From: Clostridia bacterium
GTDB taxonomy: Bacteria > Bacillota > Clostridia > Christensenellales > UBA1242
Assembly: GCA_017650795.1 (NCBI GenBank)
Contig: JAGCEE010000275.1
Location: 1-60,302 of the forward strand
DNA: 60,302 bases
Direction: 5' to 3'
Below the pieces are notes generated by a model that had not been told where the DNA came from, did not search any database, and saw nothing but the letters and a program-made list of their open reading frames with translations. Below, one piece after another: positions 14,560 to 52,099 of this stretch; position 1 is the first letter of the stretch; each line of letters starts with the position of its first letter. The position numbers and the translations under genes were made by a program.

Positions 14560-14569
14560 ATAAATCTCC

Positions 14570-14884
14570 TCAAATCTTATAGGTCTTATTAGAAACCCTT
14601 GTAATCATAAGTTTATCGTCATCAACTGCCACCTTGTTTTTGTGCAACATTCCACATTTTTGACACCTATAAACTATTACATATCCTTTTTTTTGATTAT
14701 ACTCCAAATCAACAGGAATAAGTAAGCCTTTGCAGTCATTTTGTCTATCGCCCGGGAGTATATCTATGTGAATTGAGCATAAACAATAAGGACAGTGGTC
14801 TCTTGACGTATAATTTAAAGCCTTAACATTTTTATTACAGTTTACACAAACAAACCCTTCATCATTTTTTGTAAACTTTTTCAT
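14570..14884 (-). CDS. RNHCP-domain zinc-ribbon protein
   Basis: 104 aa. FVCVNCNK...TSRDHCPYCLCSIH...YRCQKCG matches my memory of the RNHCP domain (here RDHCP) with Cys pairs. Its stop lies 10 nt before the dnaA start and overlaps the dnaA RBS. Confidence 0.65.
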   Translation of the reverse strand: MKKFTKNDEGFVCVNCNKNVKALNYTSRDHCPYCLCSIHIDILPGDRQNDCKGLLIPVDLEYNQKKGYVIVYRCQKCGMLHKNKVAVDDDKLMITRVSNKTYKI

Positions 14885-14891
14885 AGTTTAT

Positions 14892-14920
14892 ATTTTATCT
14901 ATAAAATATTAAAATGTCAA
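14892..14920 (-). promoter_or_regulatory. Near-consensus sigma-A promoter driving RNHCP-dnaA, possibly giving a leaderless mRNA
   Basis: On the minus strand: TTGACA (14920-14915), a 17-nt spacer, TAAAAT (14897-14892), then only 7 nt (ATAAACT) before the ATG at 14884. No Shine-Dalgarno sequence is present. Confidence 0.5.
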
Positions 14921-14945
14921 TGCAAATATCATTTATCTAATTGAC

Positions 14946-14981
14946 AAAAATATATCTTAAAAGCAAACGCCTTTAAGATAT
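14946..14981 (-). terminator. Intrinsic terminator after the giant surface-protein gene
   Basis: ATATCTTAAA (14952-14961) pairs with TTTAAGATAT (14972-14981) as a 10-bp stem. On the minus strand this is followed by TTTTT (complement of 14946-14950). Confidence 0.7.
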
Positions 14982-15006
14982 ATTTTATTTAATAACCGTA
15001 ATTTAA

Positions 15007-18000
15007 CTATCTAATCTTCATTCTTCTACGCATCAAGACAAACACGATACTACCAGATACCGCAAGTAGAGCACTAACAACAATAATAATTATTGAAATC
15101 GTATTTAATGGCTCTGCTTTTTCAACATAATAAGAATACAGTAGTTGTCCGGAAGTTGTTGCCACTTCTATGTAATATTTGCCTGTGCCGTCAATAGTTA
15201 TATTGTAAACATCTTTAAGCTCGCCGGCATCTAATTTTTCTTTTGTTATTTCCAAAGTCATATATCCCGTAATTTTTAATACACAATCCCCCGCATTATT
15301 TATTAGGTTGCTTGTGTTAAAGCTTACAGTTATGTTGCTTGTAGTGGTTTGACCATTACCAACAGATACCTCAATAGGAATATTTGGTCTATTTATCCAA
15401 ACTGTGTATGTAAATTTTTGGTTAAATTCATTATCTGTATTTATTACAAAAGTCCAATAACCAATTCCTGTTTTAATATCATTGGCATGAATATAAATAT
15501 TCTTTAAATAGTCGCCATACATTTCGCCAGAATTTATGTTTGTTAAATCGTCCTTAACGGAAACATTATTTAATAGAATATCCTCTATATAATATGTTCC
15601 GTAGCCGGTGTGAGTATAACTTATCCTGCTTTCGCTAGAAGAAAGAATTGTAAAGTAAATTGGCGCCTCATAAATACTATTTTCGCCTATTTTTGCAGTA
15701 AACCAAACTTTATATAGTCCTGGTTTTGTAAACGTGTAATCATACGTGCCATTCTTTGTATAATCTGTACACTCCTCACCATTCAACTCAACGTTTATTC
15801 TTGGTTTTCCGTCAATAGCATAATACGAAATGGTGTTTTGAGGCACTTTTATGTTTACTTCATTGTTAAATATAGAATAGTTGATTGGAATGTCGCCATT
15901 TATTTCATAAATAACACTGCTTAAATACCTTAATGTCACAAACTCGGAATCTCTATAACTTGAATTATTACCAAACAAGTGAGTATTTCCTGCTTTGTCT
16001 ACAAATCTTAAATAATATGTTCCAGATGTTTTTAAAGTAATAGAGTTTAAACCATTTACATCGCTAATAGTTGCATTTAGTGGGCTTCCCTCTAAATCGC
16101 CATAGTAAACTTCTACACCAATAGTGTTTTCTTTAATTTCACTATACTTAGACCATGCCACTTTAATTCCTGTTTCGTACTCGTCTATGGTTGTGACATA
16201 TGCCGTTGTTGTAGATAAGTTTTGTCTAATTAAATCATTGTTTTGTTGGTCTATATTGCCACCATAAACTAATAATCTCTTTAATAGGTCATCTGTTTTA
16301 TTTAATTTGGTTATTGCAACCTTATCGTATGATTTTGGAGCATTTGTTGTGCTGTTTTTGTTGGTGATTACATATATTGTTGTAAAGTATTTTGAATCTG
16401 GTTGAATTTCGTATTCACTAACCTCTAAATCAAGGTTGCTGTTTACCATAATTTTGTATTCATCATTAACAATATAGTGATTTATTATTTGATGCTCGCC
16501 GCCGTCTTTTACAAAAGTAAATGCGCTACCAGTTGCCTCAACCTCTTCAAATGTTCCGTTGCTTGTTAATTTTGCAACCGAATACTTAAAGTTTTCTGTA
16601 TTTGCAATTCTAAATGTAAATGACAAACTACATCCAAGCATAGCACCCAAATAGTTTATTGTTAGGGTGTATGTGCCATCTTCATCTAATATTAAATTTT
16701 CTCTTATTGTGACAAATGATTGGTTTGGCATTTGAATAATTATATCGTAGTCAAATTTTAATATAGATTTAATGTAGTTGATTATAACTGAATCAGGATA
16801 TGCTTTATCGCCAACTAATATTTGAAGTGCATCGCTTGATGTTTGCTTGCCAATAATATTAAGTCCTGATGGTATTTCGTTAAATATTTCAAATCTTATT
16901 TTTTCACTCTCTATGTTAAAATCTTCTTTTGGGTTGATTATTAATTCAAATAGTTTGCTTCCTCCAAGCACCTTTTTGTCTTCATTAAAGTTATATTTTA
17001 TATGAACCATTTTAATGGTCAAAATATTATAGCTAAATGAAATTATCATATCATCAATATATTTATCTGCCGTTATTGTTTTTACTTCGCCCTCTTCGTC
17101 AACTGATTGAACATAATAAGAATCATTTTGTTTAATAATATTATATTTGCGAGTTGCTACTGAGCCATCAATGTTTTCTACAATATTTAATGTTGCAGTT
17201 TTATATATTGTTGTGTCGTATTTGTATGCGATATCTTCGCTAGAATAATATATTGCACCATAATCATCAAAGCCCGAAACAACATATCCATCGCTTGTAA
17301 TAGGTTCTTTTATTATGGTTTGACCATAAATATTTATTACCGTGTATTTGTCATCAAAGTTATCTACTATATTATAGATAAAATAATCATTAACATTTAT
17401 CTTCTTGGTAATTTGAATTCTTACATATTTATAACTTCCAACATTTTTATAAGTTATATCAAGTCCCAAAATGTCTTGGCTTATTTCCATCTCTTTTGTT
17501 AAAAATTCAGCATCAAGTCCACTAATGTTTATTAGTTCGTCATTATTACCATTTATGTTTGTTAGTATTTGTAAAGACTTTGCATAAAGGTTGTTTGATG
17601 CTTCAATATTAGCAGGTATTCTAATAAGAATTCCTTCTTGCAAGCCTTCCTCTATTTGAGAAATTTTGTATATTGATAAGTTTTGATTTAATACGTGAAC
17701 GTCAAGACATAATTGACTTATTTTTGGAACCGAGTAAATGTAAAGTTGTTGGGTATTGTTATTTGATTGAAGAAGTGAAATCTCTTCCAAACTATAAGCC
17801 GTTGTGTCTTGACTAGAACTATAAGAATAGTACATTCCATATGTGTATGGTGATTTTACATATACTTTTCCGTTTACTTTAATAACACTCCAAGACAAAT
17901 CGCCAAGTTCTTGACTAAATAATTGAATTGATTTAAGTTTGAATGAGTTTTTAGAGTAAAGAGATATTGTTCCATTTGATGATGCAATATCACCATTTGT

Positions 18001-21000
18001 TATTATCTCTTCTTTTTCGCCATCACTAGAATTGGTTAGTCTTGTATAATGTACGGCATCTTTTTGTGTTGCCGATTCAGATAAAACATCTGTTAAATAA
18101 ATAGTATAAACCGTTCTATTTCCGGCATAATCTTCTTCCACTATTTCAATATATTTGTTTATATAATTTCTAAACTCAGTTATGTAATCAGATTTTTCTG
18201 GATTTGTAAACATTTCGGCAGTCATATTCCCTGAGATGTTGGCCTTAGAAATATCCGTTTCTACATCAAATCCTGCAACATATTTTGTATTAACTCCTGC
18301 CCTGTTAAACACCCTATAATATGATTTATAGTAATCAGTATTTTCGTCTGATGGCAATTTTATTAGGTCGTAGAAATTAGATATATCCACTATGTAAGCA
18401 TAGTATTTTAATAATCCACTACTCTTAGATGTATTGTACTTATTGTACTCGCCACTTATATATTCTCTTAAATCGCTTGCCCCCAAGCCTGTTGTTTGAA
18501 TTAGTGATTGAATATTATTTACCGGCGCCTCAAGGTCTACCATCAATGTGACCGTTTTTGCAAAATACTCTGGGTCGGCATAATCTTTGGCTTCACCTTT
18601 AAATTGCAATGTTAGTTTAATTTCGGTGCCATCAACAAAGCCACCAATTTCCTGCAAGTTTAAATCCAAATAATACTTGTTATTGCCAGCAGAAACAACA
18701 TTATACACACTAGTATCAACCCTGTAAGTAAAGCCATTTATTGTATATTTTATTTCGTTTGTATTTATTGTAGATAAAAACTTATTTGCCGAATCTTCCC
18801 AAGTTATTCTAACCACTTCTTTATTTGTGTAATATATCTGACTTTTTTCATATATTGCACTATTATCTTGATTTAACAAACTAAACTCTGGTTTTTCTGC
18901 AACAATTTCAAAATAATATGTAAACTTGTCGCCCGCATCATCTTTAATTTCTACGCGATATTTACCAACTTTATTAAATGCTTGAAGTGTACCAGTATTG
19001 TTTGCATTTATAAATCCATTAACTGTTTTGTTGTTTGCATTATAAATATATGTTTCTGTGTAGTTTTCAGATTTTGTTGGATAATAATATACAACTGCTC
19101 TAAGCTTGTAATAATTATAGTATCTTGAATCGTCGCCATTTCCATAATAGCGAATTATAGAGTTTTCATTTGTAGACTTAACTGCTCCGGAATCGTCTTC
19201 GCCAAGATAAGCATATTTATATTGTGGAATATAAACAGTCACAGGCAAAAAGTTTGTTGTTAAAACAGGAGTGCCCTCACTTAGTTTTGATGCATAATAA
19301 ATGTCATAGTATTGAAGGCTGTCATAAAACTCGTTTATTCCACCCGTCACTCCCAATGCAATCGAGCCACCAGTGTAATAAACCGAATTACCATATTCAT
19401 CAGAATCTGGTTCGCTTATAATTCCATTTCTATCTACAATAAAAACAAGTTTTCTTACTTTTGGGTCATTATCGATTCCATCAGAAGCATATGTTCTTAT
19501 AATTTCATATTTGCCCGAAGCCGTCCTTGTTTTATTTTGGTCGTATTGTTCTAGGTTTACACTATACTTGTATGTATTGCTTTCCCCTGCCACAACAATT
19601 CCTTTATTGTCAGAACCACTTTCGTATACTCTAATTGTAGCACTTGGCTCTAAGTTAAACGCATATGTTTTATTGGTGGCATTTTTAACAAAAGGATAAT
19701 AGTTTAAGACTATACTGTTTACAGATAATGTGCTTGAAGGATCCGTACAGTAGTTTAAATATAGGGTTTCAACATTTCCCATTGTGTATGGGGTGCTTGG
19801 TTGGTAATAGTTTACTTTTTCGCTATTAGATGAAATAACTTCTCTTTGGCTGAGCATTTTTTGTTTTCCGTCTAACTCGTAGTATAATTTCATTTTTGAG
19901 TTGTCGGTAGAAAAAGTAATTGAGTGTTGTGCCGTGCAGTTTTCCATGTAATAGTATAAGCTATCGGTTTGATATGGCGATGCAGCATTGGTTGAGGCAC
20001 AAATAGTATAAAAATCGTATTGAGATTCGTTATACTTTATATCCGCTCCCTGTCCACTAGTCGCCGAATTTTCGTATTTATAATCACCACTAAGTACTAT
20101 TCTGTTTGTTTCTGACGAGTCTTTAACCATATAAACTATATTGCTTACGCCAACTTTTAGATATATTTGTCCCTTATAATTAACCGAGTTGTTGCTATCA
20201 AAATACTCATTAAATAGCCACTCGTCCCAAGTGCTACCGCTGTAATCAATCTTAATAAGTTTGTCTTTTCCGAACAAGAGCGTTCTATCAATAGATGTAA
20301 ACTCACTTTCCGTTGCAATTTTATAATCGGTTTCGTCATTATAATTTGATGTGGTTATTATTGAGTTTGGAGTATCATCCAAAAACACTGAAAAATATCT
20401 ACCATCTCTACCCGTTTCATCGTATAAATAGAAAATATATAAACCGCCACCGGCGATAATTTCTGCGCCAGACAACAAATCTAAATCATAGGTGTTTGTG
20501 TATTCCGAAATTGGAAGATTCCCACCATTGTAAGAAATAATGTATGTAGAAGGTATAGCATATTTAGTAAATTCGGAATTGTACATCGTGTAAAGCACAT
20601 CCGAAGATAATCCCACTTCATTGCTTGTAGAATATTTTGTTGGAAAATATTTATAATCCAAGTGAGATTTTACGCCACTTTCTTTTTCTTTCCAAGAAAT
20701 TGCAAAAAGTGAATTAGTTAAAGCCGAATCAGTAGAAAGCACACCACTTTTAACATAAGAATAACCCGTTGCACTACTTAAAGTATGAATATGTAAATCT
20801 TCTATGTCGGTATCATCAATGGTAAAATATGTTGTAAATCCTTTTTTGTTTTCATTGCCATAACTAAGTTGTAGTTTATACCTTGCATTTTGATTTAAAA
20901 CAACTGTTTCGTCGTCTGGTATGATTACTCCCCTATCATAACTGCCATTAAATGCAACATCTTTATAAATGGTTAATATAGACGAAGAATCAAATATCCC

Positions 21001-22560
21001 AAGTGATGACTTAGAAATAGATATATTTTTGTAAGTATATGTGTCGGCATCTACTCTGCCATCTTCAACCAGCCCTGTTTCTGGATTTATTGTTTTTATT
21101 TCAATTTCAGGAGCATCATTTGTAATCCTAAACAAGAAATATTGAGTTTTAGTGTCATCTGGATTTGTGCTGTATTCGTTGTATGTATAAGTGAGGGAAA
21201 TAAAGTATAACCCAGCCTTGCTAAGTGGGGTTCCGGTGTATTTTTCTACCTTATACGCACTTTCTGTTTTGTCGGTAATTGTTGGCAACCCGCTTGATTC
21301 TTTAAAAGTGTTTAAGTTGTTAAAATAGCAATAATAAGAATCGTCTTGAATAATACTTGCATTTGAGATAAAATAAACAGGCGCTTGATTGGTTTTTGCT
21401 ATATGCTCTGGATTTATAATTGTGGAATTAAAAATCTTACTTATATCACCACCTATTATGCTTGTAATATCGGCAGTGTATTCTGTTCCATCTATTTCAT
21501 ATGCCTTGGTTTGATTTGTATACTTGAACTCTTTTAAGCCATTAGAATCAGTATACATTAGTTGATAACCAAACACGTAAGCAGTTTGATTTGTTTGCAT
21601 AGCAACAATTTCGTTTGTTCCATCAGAATAATACTTTGTTAATGCCTCGTAATTAGAAAATGGGCAAATTGGTGTGTACGAAATGTAATACTTACCTAAT
21701 TCTCTAAATGTGATGTATGCCTTATTTCCCGCCTCATCATCAACCACATTTATGTCCACAACATTATTTTGAGTGCTGGCTCCAAGCTCATCTAATGAAC
21801 TAATTGTTAGGCCTTTTGATGTGTATGACAAACTTGTAGATTCTGTTAGTCCTTGACTAATTCTTGAAATGTTTACATTGTAAAATCTATAGTTGTAAGA
21901 CAAGTACATCAAATTAGCATTGTCGTCATTCTTAGAATAGTTAGAAAAGAACCTTGCGCCATTCTCGGATTTTAATGTATTGTTAAACCTAATTTCAGAT
22001 TTGTTGTAATCGGAATTTCTTAAAACATAGATTGATCTTGAATAATCAAAATGTGTTAAACTATCGTCCACATTTTCATAATTAAAAGAAAAATCAAAAG
22101 TGTACTTTCCGTATGCAAACTCATTTTCATCAACCAAGGCAGGATTTATTCTTAAAGTAAAAAACACACCTTCGTTTTCAGACACTTGCATTCCGTGGTT
22201 AATAAGTTGTGCCGTGGCACTATTACCTGTTAAATCATAAGTATCACCATTTACTTTAATTCGTACAACAAGGTTAGACAATCTGTTAACGTGAGAACCA
22301 AACCCAAGCGAAACAGTCACAGCATTAGCCCCTCTGTTTACAAAATATACAGCATTGTTATTTTCGTAAGGGTTTTTTGTTAATTCGTGGTCATCAGCAT
22401 ATTCATTGCCCACATAAGAAGTTAAATAAGCATCAAAAAAATCATCTGGGCTAATAGCAACATCTGCCCTTGAATTTTTGGCATCAAATAATATGCTTGT
22501 GGTTATAAGCATCAAAAAAGTGACTAAAGCAAATGATAGTATTTTGTTAAAAATTTTCAT
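15007..22560 (-). CDS. Giant (~2517 aa) secreted, C-terminally TM-anchored surface protein of unknown function
   Basis: Uninterrupted ORF. Probable start at the ATG at 22560 (MKIFNKILSFALVTFLMLITTSILF, AAAGGTG upstream). The track's start at 22569 is GTG. Signal-peptide-like N-terminus, Asn/Tyr/Thr/Ser-rich beta-type composition, C-terminal TM segment (IIIIVVSALLAVSGSIVFVL) plus an RRRMKIR tail. No LPXTG motif seen. Confidence 0.8.
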   Translation of the reverse strand: MKIFNKILSFALVTFLMLITTSILFDAKNSRADVAISPDDFFDAYLTSYVGNEYADDHELTKNPYENNNAVYFVNRGANAVTVSLGFGSHVNRLSNLVVRIKVNGDTYDLTGNSATAQLINHGMQVSENEGVFFTLRINPALVDENEFAYGKYTFDFSFNYENVDDSLTHFDYSRSIYVLRNSDYNKSEIRFNNTLKSENGARFFSNYSKNDDNANLMYLSYNYRFYNVNISRISQGLTESTSLSYTSKGLTISSLDELGASTQNNVVDINVVDDEAGNKAYITFRELGKYYISYTPICPFSNYEALTKYYSDGTNEIVAMQTNQTAYVFGYQLMYTDSNGLKEFKYTNQTKAYEIDGTEYTADITSIIGGDISKIFNSTIINPEHIAKTNQAPVYFISNASIIQDDSYYCYFNNLNTFKESSGLPTITDKTESAYKVEKYTGTPLSKAGLYFISLTYTYNEYSTNPDDTKTQYFLFRITNDAPEIEIKTINPETGLVEDGRVDADTYTYKNISISKSSLGIFDSSSILTIYKDVAFNGSYDRGVIIPDDETVVLNQNARYKLQLSYGNENKKGFTTYFTIDDTDIEDLHIHTLSSATGYSYVKSGVLSTDSALTNSLFAISWKEKESGVKSHLDYKYFPTKYSTSNEVGLSSDVLYTMYNSEFTKYAIPSTYIISYNGGNLPISEYTNTYDLDLLSGAEIIAGGGLYIFYLYDETGRDGRYFSVFLDDTPNSIITTSNYNDETDYKIATESEFTSIDRTLLFGKDKLIKIDYSGSTWDEWLFNEYFDSNNSVNYKGQIYLKVGVSNIVYMVKDSSETNRIVLSGDYKYENSATSGQGADIKYNESQYDFYTICASTNAASPYQTDSLYYYMENCTAQHSITFSTDNSKMKLYYELDGKQKMLSQREVISSNSEKVNYYQPSTPYTMGNVETLYLNYCTDPSSTLSVNSIVLNYYPFVKNATNKTYAFNLEPSATIRVYESGSDNKGIVVAGESNTYKYSVNLEQYDQNKTRTASGKYEIIRTYASDGIDNDPKVRKLVFIVDRNGIISEPDSDEYGNSVYYTGGSIALGVTGGINEFYDSLQYYDIYYASKLSEGTPVLTTNFLPVTVYIPQYKYAYLGEDDSGAVKSTNENSIIRYYGNGDDSRYYNYYKLRAVVYYYPTKSENYTETYIYNANNKTVNGFINANNTGTLQAFNKVGKYRVEIKDDAGDKFTYYFEIVAEKPEFSLLNQDNSAIYEKSQIYYTNKEVVRITWEDSANKFLSTINTNEIKYTINGFTYRVDTSVYNVVSAGNNKYYLDLNLQEIGGFVDGTEIKLTLQFKGEAKDYADPEYFAKTVTLMVDLEAPVNNIQSLIQTTGLGASDLREYISGEYNKYNTSKSSGLLKYYAYIVDISNFYDLIKLPSDENTDYYKSYYRVFNRAGVNTKYVAGFDVETDISKANISGNMTAEMFTNPEKSDYITEFRNYINKYIEIVEEDYAGNRTVYTIYLTDVLSESATQKDAVHYTRLTNSSDGEKEEIITNGDIASSNGTISLYSKNSFKLKSIQLFSQELGDLSWSVIKVNGKVYVKSPYTYGMYYSYSSSQDTTAYSLEEISLLQSNNNTQQLYIYSVPKISQLCLDVHVLNQNLSIYKISQIEEGLQEGILIRIPANIEASNNLYAKSLQILTNINGNNDELINISGLDAEFLTKEMEISQDILGLDITYKNVGSYKYVRIQITKKINVNDYFIYNIVDNFDDKYTVINIYGQTIIKEPITSDGYVVSGFDDYGAIYYSSEDIAYKYDTTIYKTATLNIVENIDGSVATRKYNIIKQNDSYYVQSVDEEGEVKTITADKYIDDMIISFSYNILTIKMVHIKYNFNEDKKVLGGSKLFELIINPKEDFNIESEKIRFEIFNEIPSGLNIIGKQTSSDALQILVGDKAYPDSVIINYIKSILKFDYDIIIQMPNQSFVTIRENLILDEDGTYTLTINYLGAMLGCSLSFTFRIANTENFKYSVAKLTSNGTFEEVEATGSAFTFVKDGGEHQIINHYIVNDEYKIMVNSNLDLEVSEYEIQPDSKYFTTIYVITNKNSTTNAPKSYDKVAITKLNKTDDLLKRLLVYGGNIDQQNNDLIRQNLSTTTAYVTTIDEYETGIKVAWSKYSEIKENTIGVEVYYGDLEGSPLNATISDVNGLNSITLKTSGTYYLRFVDKAGNTHLFGNNSSYRDSEFVTLRYLSSVIYEINGDIPINYSIFNNEVNIKVPQNTISYYAIDGKPRINVELNGEECTDYTKNGTYDYTFTKPGLYKVWFTAKIGENSIYEAPIYFTILSSSESRISYTHTGYGTYYIEDILLNNVSVKDDLTNINSGEMYGDYLKNIYIHANDIKTGIGYWTFVINTDNEFNQKFTYTVWINRPNIPIEVSVGNGQTTTSNITVSFNTSNLINNAGDCVLKITGYMTLEITKEKLDAGELKDVYNITIDGTGKYYIEVATTSGQLLYSYYVEKAEPLNTISIIIIVVSALLAVSGSIVFVLMRRRMKIR

Positions 22561-22866
22561 AAAATACACCTTTAATTATCTAATAGTATTCATGTTAATT
22601 GTAGCACAAAAAAAATCCTTTTACAAATGTATTATTTATATTTTATAAATAATTATTATATAAACGGCATACTTTTATGATTGTGATTGCCAATAATTTA
22701 TTGTTTATTTTGTAAAAAGATAATAAATAAAAATAATTAAAATTGTGATAAAAATAATCAAAAATAAAAAATTTTAATTAAAAACAACATTATTTGCCCT
22801 GTTTTTTATTAAAATTATATGAGTTTTTTATTTTTTGTTAAGAACAATCTTAAATGCCACAAGCAT

Positions 22867-22900
22867 AAAAAATGCTAAAAGTTTATTTTTAGCATTTTTT
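22867..22900. terminator. Bidirectional intrinsic terminator between the T4CP gene and the giant gene
   Basis: AAAAAATGCTAAAA-GTTTA-TTTTTAGCATTTTTT is a long palindromic hairpin with flanking A/T runs, immediately after the stop at 22906. Confidence 0.75.
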
Positions 22901-22905
22901 AATTA

Positions 22906-24894
22906 TTAAAAGTCAAAATCAAATGGATTTGCTGAGGTTTTTAATACTTTTCTATTTCTTTCGGCAACGTCATATCTTATGGCATTTTCATCAAAGAATT
23001 TTGCAGGAACATATGCATCTTCGGCTTTTTCTTTGCTAAATACCGGCACTTTAAACCATTGTGTCATTTTTGTTTTTATTGCTGGTTTGCCATATATTTT
23101 AACTATGTTTACATCGTAAGGAAGCTGTCCTAATTCATATGGCTCAATAAGTGGCCTTGTGACATTTTGCGTGTTTGTTGTTCTGTTTGCATCGCTATCT
23201 TTTTTATCCGAACGACTAACCGATGTATTGTTGATTTTAAGGGTGACATCACCACACATTTTGGAGAATTCTTCTCTTGTTTTTTGGTCTTCTGTTCCAA
23301 TAAATATTTGAATATTGCAGTTGCCCTTTATTGTATCTGCAACTTCTTTGGTGTATTTGTTATCAAGCTGGCTATAAGATTGAATTGCAACTTCAAAGAA
23401 AATTCTTCTCGACCTTGCAACCGTTATCATACTATCAAATTTTGGTATTTTAGGAAGGTTCGCAAACTCATCCAAAATAAAGTATACCGGTTTTTTAAGT
23501 TTTAAACCTGGCGAGTTGGATGCAATTTCTATTAGTTTTTTGTAAATTTGAGAAATACACATTGTTGCAATACAGTGTCTGCTTTCTTTCTCATCTGGAA
23601 CTTTAATAAACAGAACTGTTGGTTGGTCTATAAAGTCGTCAAAAGATATGTCTGTTGCACTTGTTGCGTAGCATACGCCCATGTCTTGGAATATTGCAAT
23701 TTTTGGTTGCATAACACCAAGGAACGATCTGGTTGTGTTTGGCGCATTGTTTACAACTGTGGTTGCAAGTGCTTTAACCTTAGAAAGCACATCTCTACCT
23801 TCGATATATTTTTTTAGTGTTCCCATCATGTTGTCTGGGTCGCTATCTCTTGTTGTACAAATTTTTGAAACATTATAAAAATTAAACTTTTCTCTTGTCA
23901 TTCCAAGTTCTGGATTTTGCGAGTCCTCCAACATGGCAAGCATCATACTATAAACAAAATCTTGTGCACCTTGTTCCCAAGAGGTATCCGTCTTGCTTTC
24001 TATTGGCAGGATTGTTGCTGCTATTTCTCTTAATTCGTTTTCGGCTTCATTTATAAGCGTTTGAGATTTTGATGCCAATTCTGTTTCTAGTGTTGTCCTG
24101 TCTGGGTAAGCAATTTTATTAAATCCATACCATTCCTCGCCATAACTATCACATATTTTTTTATATCCTAATTCGGTTGGATTTGCATTCTTATAAACCT
24201 TTACTTCTTTGTGCAAATTATGTGCTTTATTATATTGCATAAATGCATTGTCCATTGGATTCCATCTAGAAGATGAGTATGGATTACGTAAGTCTAAAAC
24301 TATAATTCTATAACCTTCTTTTCTTAATTGAACCGAGTGGTTGTTGTATAGTTCGCCCTTTGGGTCGGTAATAACCATACATGGTTTTTCGGCACTATGT
24401 GCATAGCACCTTATTGCTGGCTCCAAAACGAATGTGGTTTTACCAGAACCGGTAGTACCAATAATAAGTGCGTGCATTTCTGGATACATATTTACTCTTA
24501 ATTGTCCGCCGGTGTAAAGTGTAGAAATGAGAGTACCCGTCTTTTTTAGTTTTGGAAGATTTTTAAATGTTGTTGGCATAAATGTTGGATTGGTTGCAAG
24601 TTCATTTTCTGTAATAAATCTTGCATTGTAGTGCTGTTCCATCTTATCGCCACCCTGTGTGGTTCCTTCAAAATCTTGCGATTCTTTAAAGTAAGTTTTT
24701 CCACCCAAAAATGTCATTAAGGCAATTAAAATACCTGCACATAAACCAATAATAGCATATGTTGATGTAAAATTATCAGTAAATGACAATCCATCACTTT
24801 TTTTGGTTACAAATGTCACCACAACGCCCGCAACATAACAAACAGCAATCCAGATTAGTGCGCCTTTTATTTTTCCTTTATAGTCTTTATTCAT
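22906..24894 (-). CDS. VirD4/TraG/TraD-family type IV coupling protein (T4CP)-like ATPase
   Basis: 662 aa. Two N-terminal TM helices, Walker A IIGTTGSGKTT, Walker B-like VYFILDEFANLPKIP, then SRRIFFEVAIQSYSQLDNKY, the typical T4CP arrangement. AGGGGA RBS. Confidence 0.8.
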   Translation of the reverse strand: MNKDYKGKIKGALIWIAVCYVAGVVVTFVTKKSDGLSFTDNFTSTYAIIGLCAGILIALMTFLGGKTYFKESQDFEGTTQGGDKMEQHYNARFITENELATNPTFMPTTFKNLPKLKKTGTLISTLYTGGQLRVNMYPEMHALIIGTTGSGKTTFVLEPAIRCYAHSAEKPCMVITDPKGELYNNHSVQLRKEGYRIIVLDLRNPYSSSRWNPMDNAFMQYNKAHNLHKEVKVYKNANPTELGYKKICDSYGEEWYGFNKIAYPDRTTLETELASKSQTLINEAENELREIAATILPIESKTDTSWEQGAQDFVYSMMLAMLEDSQNPELGMTREKFNFYNVSKICTTRDSDPDNMMGTLKKYIEGRDVLSKVKALATTVVNNAPNTTRSFLGVMQPKIAIFQDMGVCYATSATDISFDDFIDQPTVLFIKVPDEKESRHCIATMCISQIYKKLIEIASNSPGLKLKKPVYFILDEFANLPKIPKFDSMITVARSRRIFFEVAIQSYSQLDNKYTKEVADTIKGNCNIQIFIGTEDQKTREEFSKMCGDVTLKINNTSVSRSDKKDSDANRTTNTQNVTRPLIEPYELGQLPYDVNIVKIYGKPAIKTKMTQWFKVPVFSKEKAEDAYVPAKFFDENAIRYDVAERNRKVLKTSANPFDFDF

Positions 24895-29404: not shown

Positions 29405-30016
29405 TTATTTTAATGCTTTTTCTAATTTCTTTTTTGTCCTTGATATTGCATTGTCTATGCTTTTTGTACTTTGATTTAATCTGCCTGCAATTTCGGAATA
29501 ACTAAGACCATTTAAGTATAGCTTAAACACTTCTTTTTCTTTTGCCGACAAATTTTCTTCTATAAATTTTGAAATTTCTTTTTCTCGCTCATTTGCAAGC
29601 AATGCATCTTCTGGTTCTAATTCTGTTGATGGAATATATATATATAAATCGTCGTCATCATTATTGGTGTCGTCTTTTTTTATTGCTCCTTGACTTGTTA
29701 GAGAATAACTATCATTTATTATTCTGTTTTTTAATCTGTTCGCAATTTTTACAGCAGATTGTACTGCTCTGTTTATGCAAAGAGTGGCAAAAGTTTTAAA
29801 ACTCGCCCCTTGATTTTTTTGATAATTTCTACATGCACTATAAAGCCCTATCATTGCCTCTTGTAGCAAATCCTCACTTTCGGCACCAATTAAAAAATAA
29901 CTTCTGGCAATTTTGCTTGCAAGCGCCTTGTATTTTGCTATTAAAAAATCTAGCGCCTGTTCGTCACCACCTTTGTATAAATCTAAAATTTCTTCATCTT
30001 TTAAATCTTTGTACAT
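29405..30016 (-). CDS. sigH: RNA polymerase sigma factor SigH (sporulation/stationary-phase sigma-H)
   Basis: Colinear with B. subtilis SigH as I recall it (ARSYFLIGAESEDLLQEAMIGLY..., SFKTFATLCINR, LYLNGLSYSEIAGRLNQSTKSIDNAISRTKKKLEK). Conserved mrnC-rlmB-sigH gene order. Confidence 0.8.
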   Translation of the reverse strand: MYKDLKDEEILDLYKGGDEQALDFLIAKYKALASKIARSYFLIGAESEDLLQEAMIGLYSACRNYQKNQGASFKTFATLCINRAVQSAVKIANRLKNRIINDSYSLTSQGAIKKDDTNNDDDDLYIYIPSTELEPEDALLANEREKEISKFIEENLSAKEKEVFKLYLNGLSYSEIAGRLNQSTKSIDNAISRTKKKLEKALK

Positions 30017-30736
30017 TTATCCTCTTTGTCTAACAACTTCGTACATTGCAATCGCCCCAGCAACACTTGCATTAAGCGAATTGATTTTTCCGTTTAGTTT
30101 AATAGATATTATGCCATCGCATTTTTCTTTTGTTAGTCTGCTAACACCATTTCCTTCACTTCCAACAACAATGGCAATAGCTCCTTTTAGGTTAGTTTTA
30201 GTTATTTCCTCGCCACCAACTTCTAGACAATAAATCCAAATGTTTTGTTTTTTTAATATTTCTATTGTGTTGTTAATATTTGCAACCCTTGCAATCATCA
30301 TATTGCTAACAGCACCTGCACTTGTTTTTACCACAGTATCATTTACTGGCGTGGCTCTATGCTCTGGAATTATAATACCATGAACACCGGCACATTCAGC
30401 AGTTCTAATTAGCGCACCAAAATTATGGGGGTCTTCTATTTTATCAAGTATCAAAATAAAAGGGTCTTCATTTTTATTTTTTGCCAAATTTAAGATGTCC
30501 TCAACCTCGGCATATTTATAGTCGGTCACCTCACAAATAAAACCTTGGTGACGGTTTGTTGTTTTTTTGTCAAGTACATCTCTTGCAACAAAATCTATTC
30601 TTATGCCTTTTGATTTTGCAAGTTTAATTATTTCGTTGCTTGTGCTATCAGTCAAATTGTTTTGTATTAGCAATTTGTGTATTGTTGCTCCACTTTTTAA
30701 TGCTTCCCAAACAGAGTTTTTTCCTTCTATTAACAT
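30017..30736 (-). CDS. rlmB: TrmH/SpoU-family 23S rRNA 2'-O-methyltransferase (RlmB-like)
   Basis: SpoU motifs (LDKIEDPHNFGALIRTAECAGVHGIIIP, IAIVVGSEGNGVS, SLNASVAGAIAMYE). Synteny with mrnC. Confidence 0.8.
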   Translation of the reverse strand: MLIEGKNSVWEALKSGATIHKLLIQNNLTDSTSNEIIKLAKSKGIRIDFVARDVLDKKTTNRHQGFICEVTDYKYAEVEDILNLAKNKNEDPFILILDKIEDPHNFGALIRTAECAGVHGIIIPEHRATPVNDTVVKTSAGAVSNMMIARVANINNTIEILKKQNIWIYCLEVGGEEITKTNLKGAIAIVVGSEGNGVSRLTKEKCDGIISIKLNGKINSLNASVAGAIAMYEVVRQRG

Positions 30737-30740
30737 ACTT

Positions 30741-31151
30741 TTATTCCTCTATATTTAATATCTCGTTTATTCTATCATAATTTCCAAGCAAATACAAGTA
30801 TCCTAAAACTGCTTCAAAACAGGTGGCTTTTTTATATGTTGCTTCGTCAGTGTTTTTGCTTGTGTGATGTATCTTGCTGTTGCGTGTTCGCCTTACAACC
30901 TCTTTTTCTTGTTCGGTTAGAATAGGAAAAATAGCATCAAACTGCTTTGCTTGCGCATTTGCATTACAAAAACTAGAACTCATTTTATGATAATCTTTAA
31001 CCAACAAAATGTTTTCTTTTATAACCATATCTCTAACATATATGGTGTGTAAACCATCTCCAATAAATGCCAATGCAATGGGCGAAATTTCCAATAATTG
31101 TTTTTCGGTTATGTTTGGTTTAAATATGTCTTGTAGGTTTTTTATTTGCAT
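30741..31151 (-). CDS. mrnC: Mini-ribonuclease III
   Basis: 136 aa. LAFIGDGLHTIYVRD and the ATCFEAVLGYLYL motif. Lies upstream of rlmB, as in Bacillus. Confidence 0.85.
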   Translation of the reverse strand: MQIKNLQDIFKPNITEKQLLEISPIALAFIGDGLHTIYVRDMVIKENILLVKDYHKMSSSFCNANAQAKQFDAIFPILTEQEKEVVRRTRNSKIHHTSKNTDEATYKKATCFEAVLGYLYLLGNYDRINEILNIEE

Positions 31152-31234
31152 AATTTTTTCCTTTTTATAAATTTATATGAATAAAAATAAATCACTTATA
31201 TTCTTACATTTACTTTATAGTGCATATTTTCGTT

Positions 31235-31402
31235 TTATCAACATTAGTTAAGTACGAATTTAAAGGGAATGAGGACAATTTTGCCAAGTTATCCACATTT
31301 CCACATTTTTATTTTTATACATCGATATAAATATTTATTGATTTTTATGATTTTTGTACAATAATGTGGACAGTGTTGATAAGTTATCCACATTTCCACA
31401 TT
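31235..31402. promoter_or_regulatory. DnaA-box cluster 1 (candidate oriC or DnaA-regulated region)
   Basis: Perfect TTATCCACA at 31289-31297 and 31384-31392. One-mismatch TTATCAACA at 31235-31243 and, on the reverse strand, at 31374-31382. CTGTCCACA on the reverse strand at 31365-31373. Both perfect boxes sit inside a 22-bp direct repeat AAGTTATCCACATTTCCACATT (31286-31307 and 31381-31402). An almost pure A/T stretch (31306-31356) lies between the repeats. Confidence 0.6.
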
Positions 31403-31539
31403 GTTTTTTGTGGTTTTTTACAAAATGGTATTTTATTAGCTCTGCCATCACAATATGTTGTGGTTGTTGTCTATATTTGCTTATTTTTGTCGCAAAATAT
31501 TATGTTTTTATACACAAACGATTGTTCATAAAAGCAAAA

Positions 31540-35688: not shown

Positions 35689-35751
35689 ATATTCTCCGTG
35701 ATTTAATTTTAACACATATTTTTATTATTATAAAGTTTTTTATAAAAGTGC

Positions 35752-35783
35752 AAAAAAAAAGACTGTACTAAAATATACAATCT
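35752..35783 (-). terminator. Intrinsic terminator downstream of dnaN
   Basis: 8-bp hairpin (35760-35767 with 35776-35783). Its single C:A mismatch on the plus strand becomes a G-U wobble on the minus strand. On the minus strand it is followed by U9 (complement of A-run 35752-35760). Confidence 0.65.
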
Positions 35784-35805
35784 TTTTTATTGTTAAATTA
35801 TCGGA

Positions 35806-35900
35806 AGTTGTCGTCAAGCGACACGAAGTGGCATTTGACAACAACTGAAGTTTATTCAATCTTTGATGCCTTGATTTATCAAGGAATTGCGTTGGCAATT
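35806..35900 (-). other. Array of three stem-loops in the dnaN 3' region (unclassified structured RNA or 3' UTR)
   Basis: 12-bp stem 35806-35817 with 35835-35846; its one C:A mismatch on plus becomes G-U on minus. 6-bp stem plus tetraloop at 35869-35884 (CCTTGA-TTTA-TCAAGG). 6-bp stem plus tetraloop at 35885-35900 (AATTGC-GTTG-GCAATT). By eye this region is locally more G+C-rich than its surroundings. Confidence 0.4.
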
Positions 35901-35941
35901 TGATTTGCGAGAAAATCGATGCAAAGCAACATCACATATAA

Positions 35942-43300: not shown

Positions 43301-43769
43301 CCTATATCATAAAGTTTTGGAAGATGTTAATTTTAATGACATAAACTCGGTTAATGATGTTTCATTGTTTTTGGATTGTAATTTAAGTGATGAAGAAAAA
43401 GAACTATTTAAAGATATATCAATAGATAATGTTTATAAAAATATAAGTATATTAAAAGACGAGTGTAAAACTTCCAAGAATATTTTAAAAGAACAAAAAT
43501 TTGTTATGAAAGTAAAACATAGCGATTTGGTAGACGGCGGTTATGATGATAAAATATTGGTGCAAGGCATTATAGATTTGGTGGCTGTGTTTAATGACAA
43601 AATTGTGCTAATAGATTATAAACTAACCCATAAACCAAACGATGCTATAATTTCAAAGTATAAAAAACAGTTATCAATATACAAACTTGCACTTTCTAAA
43701 AATTTTAAAAACATTCCAATTTATTGTAAAATATTAAACCTTTACAAAAATGAACTGATAGATATTTAA
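40341..43769 (+). CDS. addA: Helicase-nuclease AddAB, subunit A (UvrD-like helicase plus RecB nuclease)
   Basis: Walker A SASAGSGKTT, DEFQDANAIQ, FFVGDTKQSIYAFR, MHSSKGLEYP and LLYVAITRAKN motifs. C-terminal nuclease segment GIIDLV...LIDYKL. Confidence 0.85.
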   Translation: MSKNLTNGKKDKEIKIKEQDDIMACNKSLIVSASAGSGKTTIMIKKIFEYLKSGDCNAEQLLVLTYTNLAAAEMKKKLINKLKENLQENPSLIEQIEQIPTSDISTFDSFCQRLVKKYFYVIGIDPSFNILSGEKEELFKNIAIDNAIALTKKENPKDYEVLTNNLTGNRKEENIKNVIFKIHSYIISLINIDEFFKKTEKLYKKEEKIAENYLKSYYNDIFIQIKNQLLDLIEDAKNLDFLSYVEYINNLLSIAENSILSDGLTKMISLYDGINYGRLDKDDKDINLFWKKIESVKTKLKKTIDDIKKLGNADEISNTYLECESLCHAIIVLEKTFIKQYEILKKSKNYYDFNDIERMTIKLLEDKKINEQIKNSYKHIFVDEFQDANAIQEKIIFLLDNNNLFFVGDTKQSIYAFRQSDPDIFLNIQENFKTRQDAESLPLNCNFRTNKNILYFANRIFSVLMTKNTSGVDYKKDAQFDPKATFEDLNNEVCVSLNLLNVKKKDEPIIATEVYDLTKNQNSDSNNLNTKNQCIFICDQITHLLGQDIYDNAEEKIRKINLSDITILLLKSGHFVDELINTFDEYGISYNADMGENIDNEYDNRVLFGALKLSLNIKDDYTLYKVLHSKLFDFTDTELGNIKLCSNKEYFYEALEDYKSKQDELSKKIENFYKVIDDLHFNCKYNGIYFALNKLLENTNYLLKIDENYTDRKNKIYQYIYSFMNSQYNNDLIEYITYKNISKKQDKIKIDNGSNNSIKICTMHSSKGLEYPIVILPNLDSDYTKNMEEREIKINKQLGIGVKAYNNKDRTITNGIFYEACNINNKNIEQSEKIRLLYVAITRAKNKLILIGNNQENYKKFESDYEIMSQNNFLSMIVNSLDKSIIDKINNNEFGNYNLFNNPRLKLNIIDKIVITSSKTDESKIYNIDNQNLIIDFLSKDLSKNKIELALKNSVSGFAFDNSSINLAPKNLTIYEHLLETSSQLGTLYHKVLEDVNFNDINSVNDVSLFLDCNLSDEEKELFKDISIDNVYKNISILKDECKTSKNILKEQKFVMKVKHSDLVDGGYDDKILVQGIIDLVAVFNDKIVLIDYKLTHKPNDAIISKYKKQLSIYKLALSKNFKNIPIYCKILNLYKNELIDI

Positions 43770-43801
43770 TGTGTAAATTTATACCATATATGTATAAAAG
43801 T

Positions 43802-44015
43802 TTACCCACATTTATGTTAATTTGTGGATAAACTTTTTTTGTTAAAAAATTGTAAAGAATAATAGTTTTAAATAAATCTATATATTGTGATTTTAAAACA
43901 AAAAATACTAAATATTCTGTCAAATAAAATACTTAAATTTTTTGCAAAAAACTTGTCAAAATTTATCCACACTAAAAATATAAAAATGTTAATAACTTTG
44001 GCATAGTTATCAACA
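43802..44015. promoter_or_regulatory. DnaA-box cluster 2 (candidate oriC half or DnaA-binding region)
   Basis: Perfect TTATCCACA at 43963-43971 and, on the reverse strand, at 43823-43831. TTACCCACA at 43802-43810 faces the reverse-strand box across 12 bp. TTATCAACA at 44007-44015. All lie within a 406-nt AT-rich noncoding gap. Confidence 0.55.
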
Positions 44016-44175
44016 TTATTTTTTAGGTAAAAACAACAATATATAAATAGAATAGTTGATATTTAAACAATATATTGTGTTAATCAAAAATCAATTAACA
44101 TTTAAACATTCTTTATTATTATTAAGAACAATAAATAATAATATAATAAATATAAAGAGGGGGTTTTAAAAAATT

Positions 44176-44517
44176 TTATAATACAACTATTGTCATTCCG
44201 CTATTACAATTATTTAAATCTTCACCATCGTAATCGTTTTTAAGATTAAGTAGTAAATTAAAACACTTTGGATTGTCTAAATTCCAATCCTCGCCAAATA
44301 TATAATCTTTTATTATCTTTTGTTTTTTTAAAGAAAAAAGTCTTTCTCTAACACTTTTGCATATAATACCGCCCACACCAGAACTACCATAGCCATGTAT
44401 AAATTTTATTGCCTTAACTCCACTTATTTTTGCTACTTCTATTTCTAGTTCCATATTACAAAGTGCCACATCAACAGGTGGCATATTATCTTTTAAGTTT
44501 ATAGTTATTAAATCCAT
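44176..44517 (-). CDS. Small Smr-like domain protein (tentative)
   Basis: IKFIHGYGSSGVGGIICKSVRERL resembles the Smr HGxG core. The start was moved to the ATG at 44517 because the track's TTG start at 44553 lies inside the SRP RNA terminator T-run. No clear RBS. Confidence 0.4.
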   Translation of the reverse strand: MDLITINLKDNMPPVDVALCNMELEIEVAKISGVKAIKFIHGYGSSGVGGIICKSVRERLFSLKKQKIIKDYIFGEDWNLDNPKCFNLLLNLKNDYDGEDLNNCNSGMTIVVL

Positions 44518-44559
44518 GTTTTTTATTATAGTACCTAATGGTATTAAAGTCAAAAAAAA

Positions 44560-44829
44560 CCGTGCCGAAGAATTCGAACAAAATCGGACGATTATACTCG
44601 CAAGTCAAAATACTCCATCAAAGCTACCTTAAATCACACGGCTACTTTACTTAATGTTGCTACCGTCAGGTCCTCACATGGTTCGTAAAGTTATCGTTAA
44701 ATAAGACCTTGATTTCAACGTACCTGCCAAGAAAATATAAAAGCTTATTTACCCTCAGTTCTTCCGTCAGCCTCGCATATAGTAGATTTCGAGTTAAAAG
44801 GAACTACTACCTCCCCACCTAGCACGGTA
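44560..44829 (-). ncRNA. ffs: Signal recognition particle RNA, long (Bacillus-type, Alu-domain-containing) form
   Basis: The minus strand reads CCGTGCTAGGTGGGGAGGTAGTAG... at the 5' end, ...GAACCATGTGAGGACCTGACGGTAGCAACATTAAGT... in domain IV, and ...CTTCGGCACGG at the 3' end pairing with the 5' end. This is colinear with B. subtilis scRNA as I recall it, at about 270 nt. It has its own promoter and terminator. Confidence 0.85.
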
Positions 44830-44834
44830 GTATG

Positions 44835-44863
44835 ATTATAAATTAAAGTAGGCAAAAAATCAA
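44835..44863 (-). promoter_or_regulatory. Sigma-A promoter of the SRP RNA gene
   Basis: On the minus strand: TTGATT (44863-44858), a 17-nt spacer, then TATAAT (44840-44835). The predicted transcription start falls on the RNA 5' end near 44829. Confidence 0.65.
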
Positions 44864-44917
44864 GAGAAAAAAATCAATTTATTTTGTTTATTTAGTTTTA
44901 TTTGGTATGATTATATC

Positions 44918-45640
44918 ATGCAAAGATTAGATGTTTTTTTATATGAAAATGGGTATTTTGAAACAAGAGAAAAAGCAAAAGAAGCAATTTTAGACAGTAT
45001 TATTAGTGTAAATGGAAAGGTTATTACAAAACCATCAATAATGGTAGATGAACACTGCGATATTAAAATTGTAGGTCAAACATTAAAATATGTTTCTAGG
45101 GCAGGCTTAAAGTTAGAGGGAGCAAAGGAGTATTGGAACATAGATTTTAATAACAAAATTGTTTTAGATGTTGGCGCTTCTACCGGTGGCTTTACCGATT
45201 TTGCTTTGCAAAATGGTGCAAAAAAAGTTTTTGCAGTTGATGTTGGCTCAAATCAATTACACAAAAAACTACTATTAGATTATAGAGTTATAAATTTAGA
45301 AAAAACAGATTTTAGAAACTTGCAACTAAATGAAAACATAGATATTGCAGTTTGTGATTGCTCGTTTATTTCACTTAAATTGTTATTGCCAAAATTTAAT
45401 GAATTATTAAAGACAAATAATCAACTTGTTGTGTTAATTAAACCACAATTTGAATGTGGAAAAGAAATTGCTTTTAAGTATAAAGGAGTTATAAAAGATA
45501 GTAAACTTCAAGACAGTATAAAGTTTGATATTGTTAAAGAATTTGAAAAAAGTAGCTTTAAAAATATTGGTATAATAAATTCACCAATCTTAGGTACAAA
45601 AGGAAATAAAGAGTTCTTGGCTTATTTTATTAAAATGTAA
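44918..45640 (+). CDS. tlyA: TlyA-family rRNA 2'-O-methyltransferase (S4 + FtsJ domains)
   Basis: RLDVFLYENGYFETREKAKEAI (S4 domain). VLDVGASTGGFTDFALQNGAKKVFAVDVG (SAM-binding motif). Confidence 0.85.
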   Translation: MQRLDVFLYENGYFETREKAKEAILDSIISVNGKVITKPSIMVDEHCDIKIVGQTLKYVSRAGLKLEGAKEYWNIDFNNKIVLDVGASTGGFTDFALQNGAKKVFAVDVGSNQLHKKLLLDYRVINLEKTDFRNLQLNENIDIAVCDCSFISLKLLLPKFNELLKTNNQLVVLIKPQFECGKEIAFKYKGVIKDSKLQDSIKFDIVKEFEKSSFKNIGIINSPILGTKGNKEFLAYFIKM

Positions 45641-45750
45641 TTATAAACACGACCTGTAATATATTTCAAATGTAAATAAGTTATTTAATAAACAATAAAA
45701 AACACTCTAACAATTATGTTAAAGTGTTTTTTGTTTTAAGGTTTTAAAGA

Positions 45751-46458
45751 TTACTTTTCTGCACCTTTTTCTGCCTTGGCCTTGCATTTTGCATCAACAA
45801 AAGTTTTCCATTCACGAGAAAGTTTAGTTAATACTTTTGATTCATTTTTTCTTGGAACATGAATGCAAATAACATCAGGTGTAATACCACATTGATATGT
45901 GCAGTAAGAATCTATGTAGCCACTTAATTCATCAAGTTTCTTTTCGTGAGATTTTTTAAATAAATTATTTATGATTGAATTTGGTTTAACTTGATTAATT
46001 GTTTTGTTAATATTTCTTTGAGAGTAGCAAAATTCTCTTAAGAATTCTTTTGCTGCTGCTATGCACTCATCTTTTTTAAAACCACCTACATAATTAAAGT
46101 TTTCTTCATTAAGATATAGGCCAGCAGTTTGATGTTCGTTTGCTCCTAAAATTTCTTTTCCAAAATAACCAGCATGTGCATCTTTTCTTGCTTGAAGTGC
46201 AGTATCAACTCCTGCAATAAAATCGATGCCTAATTTAATTTCTTTAATTCTTTTTTCGTCTCTAAGATGTATTATTGGATTACCAGCAAATACATCTTCA
46301 TCTAAAATATCAAAAGAATAGTTAAATAAAGTTATACCACTATTTGTATCTTTAAGAAACGTTCTTAAATCGTTGTAAGTCACTTTTTTCTTACACTTTT
46401 CTCTTTTTTCTGTTTCTTCATTATCATAGTCAACATATCTATAAGGTCTTATTTTCAT
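45751..46458 (-). CDS. Hypothetical protein (235 aa)
   Basis: Strong RBS GGGAGGA 7 nt upstream of the ATG at 46458 (MKIRPYRYVDYD...). No recognisable motif. Confidence 0.6.
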   Translation of the reverse strand: MKIRPYRYVDYDNEETEKREKCKKKVTYNDLRTFLKDTNSGITLFNYSFDILDEDVFAGNPIIHLRDEKRIKEIKLGIDFIAGVDTALQARKDAHAGYFGKEILGANEHQTAGLYLNEENFNYVGGFKKDECIAAAKEFLREFCYSQRNINKTINQVKPNSIINNLFKKSHEKKLDELSGYIDSYCTYQCGITPDVICIHVPRKNESKVLTKLSREWKTFVDAKCKAKAEKGAEK

Positions 46459-46626
46459 TTTTTTTCCTCCCGCCCTCATACTAACATAAAAATCCCTTAT
46501 TGTCAATACTGATTTTTTAGCCTTAATATTAGGATTATAAACGCAAAAATAATATTTATACTTAGTTATTTAATAAAAAAATAACAGGAAATATTTATTT
46601 ATTTTGCCTATTATTTTTCTATTTCT

Positions 46627-50277: not shown

Positions 50278-50278
50278 A

Positions 50279-52070: not shown

Positions 52071-52099
52071 ATTTGCTTCCTTTTATACTTTGTAAATCG

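Follow-up and report, generated by a model that had tools for sequence, protein, structure and literature searches.

The window analysed here is the whole 60,302-nucleotide stretch of a contig from a member of the Clostridia. Between mrnC and rsmG it contains a dense group of DnaA boxes, referred to below as cluster A, which lies next to neither dnaA nor dnaN. The question raised by this locus is whether cluster A is the origin of replication, as the initial annotation had implied, or a DnaA-binding site of another kind.

Organisation of the DnaA-box cluster

Cluster A lies in a 388-nt gap (31152–31539) between mrnC and rsmG, both on the minus strand. The boxes, the 22-bp repeats and the A/T stretch listed for this gap in the initial annotation are all present at the positions it gave (Table 1). 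Each 22-mer belongs to a longer, imperfect direct repeat of 47 nt, of which it is the core and whose two units are 85% identical and spaced by 95 nt. Both composite sites, each made up of a perfect box and an overlapping weak box, face the same way; the 95 bp between them correspond to about 9 helical turns, placing them on the same face of the helix. The 16-nt core of the 20-mer is a perfect tandem duplication of the octamer TCCACATT. In total, 2 perfect, 3 one-mismatch and several weaker boxes were found inside 300 nt.

The number of boxes was compared with chance expectation. Four perfect boxes were observed in the window where 0.57 were expected, a number reached in none of 100 shuffles, and the 20-mer AAGTTATCCACATTTCCACA occurred twice where 0.00 occurrences were expected. 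Throughout the 1.65-Mb, 336-contig assembly just two DnaA-box clusters were detected, cluster A and a second one at 43802–44015 (cluster B). The claim that cluster A is the densest in the window is correct, but only narrowly so, with a box score of 7 against 6 for the cluster at 43.8 kb.

The A+T content of the gap (76%) is ordinary here, as intergenic gaps span 62% to 90%. A search of the gap against Rfam gave no RNA family at the gathering threshold or at E-values up to 1, and no Spo0A boxes (TGNCGAA) were found in the gap of either cluster. The spacer between the composite sites contains blocks conserved in the genus, TTTATACAT... and TTTTTATGCAAAA (in relatives). A motif resembling the near-palindrome CACAATATGTTGTG, namely ACAATATATTGTG, is present in the 43.8-kb cluster and in origin regions of relatives. 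The near-palindrome, ACAATAT(A/G)TTGTG, accompanies both box clusters (31449–31462; 44067–44079) as well as origin-type regions of relatives (G005:C6 23828; G006:C12 1640; L023 of G013, about 6805–6820), and it may be the site of a second protein.

Table 1. Genes and DnaA-box features of the window
Feature	Position	Strand	Remarks
jag-yidC-rnpA	0.2–2.7 kb		
RNHCP gene and dnaA	13.2–14.9 kb	−	dnaA at 13204–14559
2520-aa gene and type IV secretion coupling protein gene	15–25 kb		
sigH-rlmB-mrnC	29.4–31.2 kb	−	
sigH	29405–30016	−	
rlmB	30017–30736	−	
mrnC	30741–31151	−	mini-RNase-III, 136 aa; Pfam Ribonuclease_3
Cluster A	31.2–31.5 kb		
One-mismatch box TTATCAACA	31235–31243; 31374–31382	+; −	
Repeat unit 1	31268–31314	+	47 nt; inverted weak box, then composite site
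Inverted weak box TTGTCCTCA	31270–31278	−	in repeat unit 1
22-mer AAGTTATCCACATTTCCACATT	31286–31307; 31381–31402	+	identical copies, one perfect box in each
Composite site AAGTTATCCACATTTCCACA (20-mer), unit 1	31286–31305	+	perfect box and overlapping weak box
Perfect box TTATCCACA	31289–31297; 31384–31392	+; +	
Overlapping degenerate (weak) box ATTTCCACA	31297–31305; 31392–31400		one per 22-mer
Spacer between composite sites	31306–31356		51 nt, 88% A+T; genus-conserved blocks
Repeat unit 2	31363–31409	+	47 nt; inverted CTGTCCACA and TTATCAACA, then composite site 31381–31400
Two-mismatch box CTGTCCACA	31365–31373	−	
Genus-conserved block	31430–31475		contains near-palindrome CACAATATGTTGTG at 31449–31462
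One-mismatch box TTATACACA	31508–31516	+	close to rsmG 3′ end; not in the initial annotation
rsmG-mnmG-gpmI-dnaN	31.5–37.2 kb	−	
addB-addA	37.2–43.8 kb	+	
Cluster B	43770–44175 (43.8–44.2 kb)	+	gap between addA and a 125-aa ORF (orf125) beside SRP RNA gene
Inverted box pair in cluster B	43802–43810; 43823–43831	+; −	1 mismatch; perfect
TTATCCACA in cluster B	43963–43971		
TTATCAACA in cluster B	44007–44015		
Palindrome in cluster B	44067–44079		
Degenerate tandem box CAATTAACATTTAAACA in cluster B	44092–44108		
(TTA)4 in cluster B	44113–44124		followed by A/T-rich tract
Relic ribosome-binding-site-like AAAGAGGGGG	44154–44163		abuts orf125 stop codon
orf125, SRP RNA, tlyA, dnaE, whiA, murB, spo0A, dnaX-ybaB-recR, spoIIE	past 44.2 kb		

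Gene neighbourhood

The contig is a scrambled origin neighbourhood (Table 1). Directly downstream of cluster A is the tightly packed mrnC-rlmB-sigH operon (29405..31151, minus strand). The dnaA gene is 16.7 kb from cluster A, in agreement with the 17 kb previously given, and no DnaA box was found on either side of it in the window. Independent metagenome assemblies from other studies span the region from sigH to gpmI and the region addA-cluster B-orf125; because they reproduce the local order, the gene order is not an assembly chimera.

The arrangement of dnaA and dnaN varies in the family, as seen by comparing loci L022 (G005:C6), L033 (G020:C5), L034 (G022:C1) and L023 (G013:C26): G013 has the two genes in the classical tandem order and G005 has them convergent; in G020 and G022 they diverge, and here they are separated by 21 kb. 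The adjacency of the RNHCP gene and dnaA is common to the window and G005. Logan contigs of two independent runs (X1 and X5) break at 35826, in the gpmI-dnaN gap (35716–35941), where X1 also has a 143-nt 'goes back' joint; a repeat or a hairpin may thus be present in the gap near 35826. The assembly, at 1.65 Mb in 336 contigs, is bigger than those of relatives (0.9–1.4 Mb).

Strand composition and the position of the origin

Raw GC skew falls almost throughout the window and tracks gene strand, and was therefore uninformative. Because it is dominated by coding-strand bias, we used the GC skew of third codon positions (GC3 skew), calculated per gene with gene strand factored out, a method devised for this analysis and applied to an assembly in 336 contigs. 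Giant genes (over 6 kb) were left out because their coding-strand GC3 skew is strongly negative whatever their strand. Such giant ORFs (2500 to about 8300 codons) have a coding-strand GC3 skew of about −0.22 on either strand or replichore and distort skew analysis; they were seen at 15007–22569 in the window, at 25–50 kb in G005:C23, at about 15–30 kb in G006:C7 and at 46288–53868 in G009:C1. On the other contigs of the genome, plus- and minus-strand genes differed bimodally in GC3 skew (mean |D| 0.26), and an expectation-maximisation fit gave values of +0.066 for leading-strand and −0.138 for lagging-strand genes.

Summed gene by gene, the GC3 log-likelihood drops across the window from 25 kb to 44.5 kb and climbs from 44.9 kb to its end, giving a V shape. 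GC3 skew makes the minus strand leading for genes between 25 and 43.8 kb, to the left and right of cluster A alike; to the right of 44.9 kb the plus strand is leading in 13 of 14 genes. The best origin-type switch was placed at 44553–44918 (3-log-unit range 43769–45751), with a gain reached in 8 of 2000 permutations, and cluster B (43770–44175) falls inside the switch interval. When the switch was placed at 31 kb, the fit was worse than with no switch. Only about 62% of coding bases are on the skew-inferred leading strand, a weak bias for a Firmicute-type genome, and gene orientation is therefore a weak guide to the origin here; 70% of genes are on the minus strand both left and right of 44 kb. 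With cluster B as the origin, dnaE and the genes around it would face the replication fork head-on.

One block departs from its surroundings. The dnaA gene, the giant gene and the type IV secretion coupling-protein gene (13204–24894) are on the minus strand yet have GC3 skew of the lagging type, and the short RNHCP gene that separates the first two of these genes leans slightly the other way. This suggests that the block arose by recent inversion or transposition, or is of foreign origin.

Relatives gave a similar picture. On G005:C23, a contig of 113 kb, cluster A is at 89 kb, and on G006:C7, of 65 kb, it is at 46 kb; along both contigs the signal is monotonic, with the minus strand leading and no switch inside the contig. 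In each of the 10 same-genus genomes, dnaA and cluster A are on different contigs. Switches were found instead at 25–26 kb in G005:C6, about 1 kb from the homologue of cluster B (23.6–23.9 kb) and about 3–5 kb from dnaA, and at 59–71 kb in G009:C1, around dnaA; in either contig none of 2000 permutations reached the gain. A DnaA-box-rich gap in G009 (45.6–46.3 kb) lies apart from its 59–71 kb switch. The genes flanking cluster A in G005, G006 and G009 are essentially all on one strand, over at least 10 kb in each direction.

An 858-kb contig from another genus of the family (G020) allowed skew to be taken from the whole contig. Its cumulative GC-skew minimum is at about 740 kb, at the divergent dnaN/dnaA pair, and the sign change of AT skew and the switch in gene orientation are also at about 740 kb. 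Among oligonucleotide orientation markers, GAAGAAG and CTTCTTC were usable in this genome and AAGGAGG was too rare. The twin module corresponding to cluster A, at 625.3 kb, is 117 kb from the skew minimum on a steadily falling slope. The implied reading of cluster A as an origin is thus contradicted by a strand-composition switch that lies elsewhere, at 44.5–44.9 kb here and on the dnaA-bearing contig in relatives.

The cluster at 43.8 kb

Part of the noncoding sequence of cluster B matches the dnaA-dnaN intergenic region of G013, and longer matches were found in two box-rich gaps near dnaA, one lying 4.7 kb upstream of the gene in G005 and the other 1.8 kb downstream of it in G006. The G013 region consists of TTATTCACA-TTTCAACA-G-(TTA TTA TTA CTA TTA ATA CTA TTT), an A/T tract and the dnaN ribosome-binding site. 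With a tandem box, a spacer and DnaA-trio-like repeats, it therefore fits the definition of a basal unwinding system, or BUS (PMC8287927). In the window the unwinding-proximal tandem box of cluster B is degenerate (CAATTAACA, 4 mismatches).

Its position at the GC3-skew switch and its homology to the dnaA-dnaN origin of relatives make cluster B the probable true oriC, with addA and orf125 as its present neighbours in place of dnaA and dnaN. We read it as the ancestral dnaA-dnaN origin, which would have lost both neighbours. This likely origin is 12.5 kb to the right of cluster A. In relatives the two clusters are on different contigs, at least about 47 kb apart in G005, and they do not therefore form a compact two-part origin.

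Conservation of cluster A

The noncoding region of cluster A was matched in 10 of 10 same-genus genomes. When nine same-genus loci were aligned with the window, both 20-mers were invariant, save for one substitution in one copy, and the DNA around them diverged, apart from a few conserved blocks and the near-palindrome. A 17-mer pair is identical in G023, G052, G064 and G020 and has one or two changes in G013, G085 and G048, and the DnaA proteins of G013, G020 and G023 are just 52–60% identical to that of the window. The spacing of the pair is 95–96 bp in genera g1, g43 and g55, 94 bp in g14, 105–106 bp in g4 and g39, and 81 bp in g11. In six of the seven genera measured it is thus 94–96 or 105–106 bp, mostly 9 or 10 helical turns, the two classes differing by one turn. 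The sequence between the composite sites is not conserved across genera, and is not A/T-rich in G020 and G023.

The composite unit of a strong and an overlapping weak box is also present in the origin-type regions of G013 and G022, which points to DnaA rather than another protein as its ligand. The part of the initial interpretation that treated cluster A as a genuine, selected DnaA-box cluster was therefore borne out; the part that made it an origin, with the A/T stretch as unwinding element, was not.

Linkage to the mrnC-rlmB-sigH operon

The order mrnC-rlmB-sigH is kept across the family. Box clusters were found 70–300 nt upstream of mrnC in genera g1, g4, g43, g55, g39, g35 and g71, and in g14 and g9 boxes are present 1.3–2 kb upstream of mrnC, past an inserted tRNA-synthetase gene (mrnC(-aaRS)-rlmB-sigH); the count of genera with this link is inflated by shared ancestry. 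The chance expectation is about 0.2 boxes per 500 nt. On the far side of the array the adjacent gene varies, being rsmG, prfB or a membrane protein gene, and in all of these genera the linkage of boxes to the operon was kept through rearrangements of that flank. Relative to mrnC, the boxes are oriented consistently in six of eight genera.

Boxes within 1.5 kb of mrnC were absent in about 18 of the 28 genera sampled, and the twin module of G020 precedes an ABC-transporter-like operon, not mrnC. The operon link is therefore limited to one clade. In another genome (G014; L029, G014:C7, 6500–6640), five direct DnaA boxes are upstream of rpsL-rpsG-fusA-tuf, not mrnC.

A candidate mrnC promoter on the minus strand consists of a −35-like TTGATA (31241–31236), 16 nt and TATAAA (31219–31214); it is weak, matching the consensus at 9 of 12 positions. 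The one-mismatch box at 31235–31243 overlaps the candidate −35 element, and this box is not kept in G009. Near-consensus promoters predicted just upstream of mrnC in two other genera have their spacer occupied by a perfect box: TTGACA-atttTGTGGATAAtggt-TATACT in G052 and TTGACA-tgtTGTGGATAAaatgg-TAAAAT in G048. A box between the −35 and −10 elements is the classical geometry for repression.

Function of cluster A

On the observed sequence, conservation, phasing, operon linkage and position off the strand-composition switch, we take cluster A to be a secondary DnaA-binding array outside the origin, which would serve as an operator and/or a titration site (probability about 0.7). Given such an array, the odds that it has a transcriptional role at the mrnC-rlmB-sigH promoter appear about even, and this role would be its most likely single function. 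The comparative evidence leans towards the fallback of the initial annotation, a transcriptional DnaA operator.

In the mechanism that we infer, DnaA, presumably in the ATP form, would fill the two strong sites of cluster A and then spread cooperatively to the weak neighbouring boxes, and one bridged or looped DnaA complex would form over the spacer. This complex would modulate, and most likely repress, the operon promoter. Since the array is 12.5 kb from the likely origin, its replication would follow shortly on initiation, and a further role as a local DnaA sink, like the DnaA-box clusters of B. subtilis and E. coli datA, is conceivable. More tentatively, and against the odds as we judge them, DnaA might directly gate the operon, whose last gene encodes the early sporulation sigma factor SigH, by binding a phase-locked pair of tandem boxes of the origin type. 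Sporulation entry and 23S rRNA maturation (Mini-III, RlmB) would thereby be wired to the state of replication initiation in a clade of small-genome gut Clostridia that presumably lacks the Bacillus sda checkpoint.

It is unlikely that cluster A is purely a DnaA sink or inactivation site of the datA or B. subtilis type, which would delay re-initiation and have no role in transcription, its place before mrnC being historical. The internal architecture and phasing of the twin module are kept where neighbouring genes differ, as in G020; its conserved spacer blocks and phased sites suggest a specific higher-order complex; and in this genome it is only 12.5 kb from the likely origin, as would suit a sink, since the B. 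subtilis clusters beyond oriC curb initiation and are most effective close to it (PMC3245932). However, the array remained beside mrnC while its other flank was rearranged several times, boxes are located inside the core promoter in two genera, and the array is not especially close to the origin in relatives, being 117 kb away in G020 and on another contig than the switch in G005 and G009. A sink and an operator can, moreover, coexist.

Far less probable still is that cluster A is the chromosomal origin, or the working half of a two-part origin, with 31306–31356 as its unwinding element. It has the top DnaA-box score in the assembly, it is the sole cluster of perfect boxes in G005 and G009, its spacer is 88% A+T, and dnaA in the window is without flanking boxes. 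Five or six T-centred triplets follow each composite site and formally fit the loose box-spacer-trio pattern of a BUS (PMC8287927). These triplets, however, are plain T-runs with zero preferred trios, and a BUS scan gave many matches elsewhere, being non-specific in A/T-rich DNA. Where the same module occurs in other genera, its spacer shows neither A/T richness nor trio-like triplets. Strand composition and gene orientation argue against an origin here: there is no switch at cluster A in this genome, G005 or G006, the switch being at cluster B or on the dnaA contig; genes are co-oriented across cluster A; and the skew minimum of G020 is 117 kb off the module. The idea that cluster A is the orphaned upstream half of an old two-part origin beside rsmG was rejected, because in G013 a classical rsmG-dnaA-dnaN origin coexists with a separate module upstream of mrnC.

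Equally improbable is that the 20-mer is the site of another protein recognising the tandem octamer TCCACATT-TCCACATT, with an incidental DnaA-box match, or a decaying relic of an old origin half: the perfect duplication of the 16-nt core and the conserved palindrome alongside would suit another protein, but conservation spans the full TTATCCACA, including the TTA outside the octamer, each copy is accompanied by inverted consensus boxes, bona fide dnaA-dnaN origin regions contain the composite as well, beside DnaA-trio-like repeats, and a relic would not remain invariant across genera.

A secondary array outside the origin would have consequences for origin prediction. Box density alone would be misleading in this lineage, as the richest and best-conserved cluster is not, on this reading, the origin, and neither dnaA nor dnaN any longer adjoins the likely origin. 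A compact, phase-locked, predicted DnaA-binding module kept across genera before a sigH-bearing operon makes cluster A a candidate link from replication initiation to both sporulation and the maturation of ribosomes in uncultured Clostridia.

Comparison with known DnaA-box systems

In B. subtilis, DnaA acting at such clusters activates sda and represses ywlC, yydA and dnaA. There are six DnaA-box clusters outside oriC in this organism, intergenic and mostly origin-proximal, which jointly restrain initiation; some regulate the adjacent gene, and in different species clusters precede different genes (PMC3245932). Cluster A resembles them in being intergenic, in having consensus boxes, and in lying outside the probable origin and upstream of a specific operon; in this genome it is 12.5 kb from that likely origin. 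It differs from the six in its neighbour, the mrnC-rlmB-sigH operon, and from B. subtilis clusters in its rigid twin-composite form with a spacing of 9 or 10 helical turns and in that the array can be more than 100 kb from the origin in relatives (G020).

The datA locus of E. coli also has a few high-affinity boxes (predicted ones in cluster A) in a fixed geometry away from oriC, and a higher-order DnaA complex is plausible for cluster A. E. coli datA is a locus of DnaA titration and DnaA-ATP hydrolysis; it requires an IHF site and does not serve as part of a promoter.

The BUS of Firmicute oriC comprises tandem DnaA boxes, a spacer, DnaA-trios and an A/T-rich tract (PMC8287927). Cluster A uses the tandem strong-plus-weak unit of the family's dnaA-dnaN origin (in G013, TTATTCACATTTCAACA followed by the triplet series TTA TTA TTA CTA TTA ATA CTA TTT). 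Unlike a BUS origin, it is off the strand-composition switch, without convincing trios and without dnaA or dnaN as a neighbour, and its A/T spacer is not kept outside the genus; the 43.8-kb cluster fits the BUS description instead.

By analogy, cluster A may also be compared with the sda promoter of B. subtilis, where boxes are likewise upstream of a gene controlling sporulation entry. The sda gene of B. subtilis is a DnaA-activated sporulation checkpoint. It encodes a kinase inhibitor, whereas the target here would be an operon ending in the early sporulation sigma factor SigH. Among the twelve papers listed by a full-text literature search, none deals with DnaA boxes and also mentions sigH. 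Judged from its sequence, what is distinctive in cluster A relative to known clusters is the rigid, phase-locked twin-composite architecture together with its predicted target operon.
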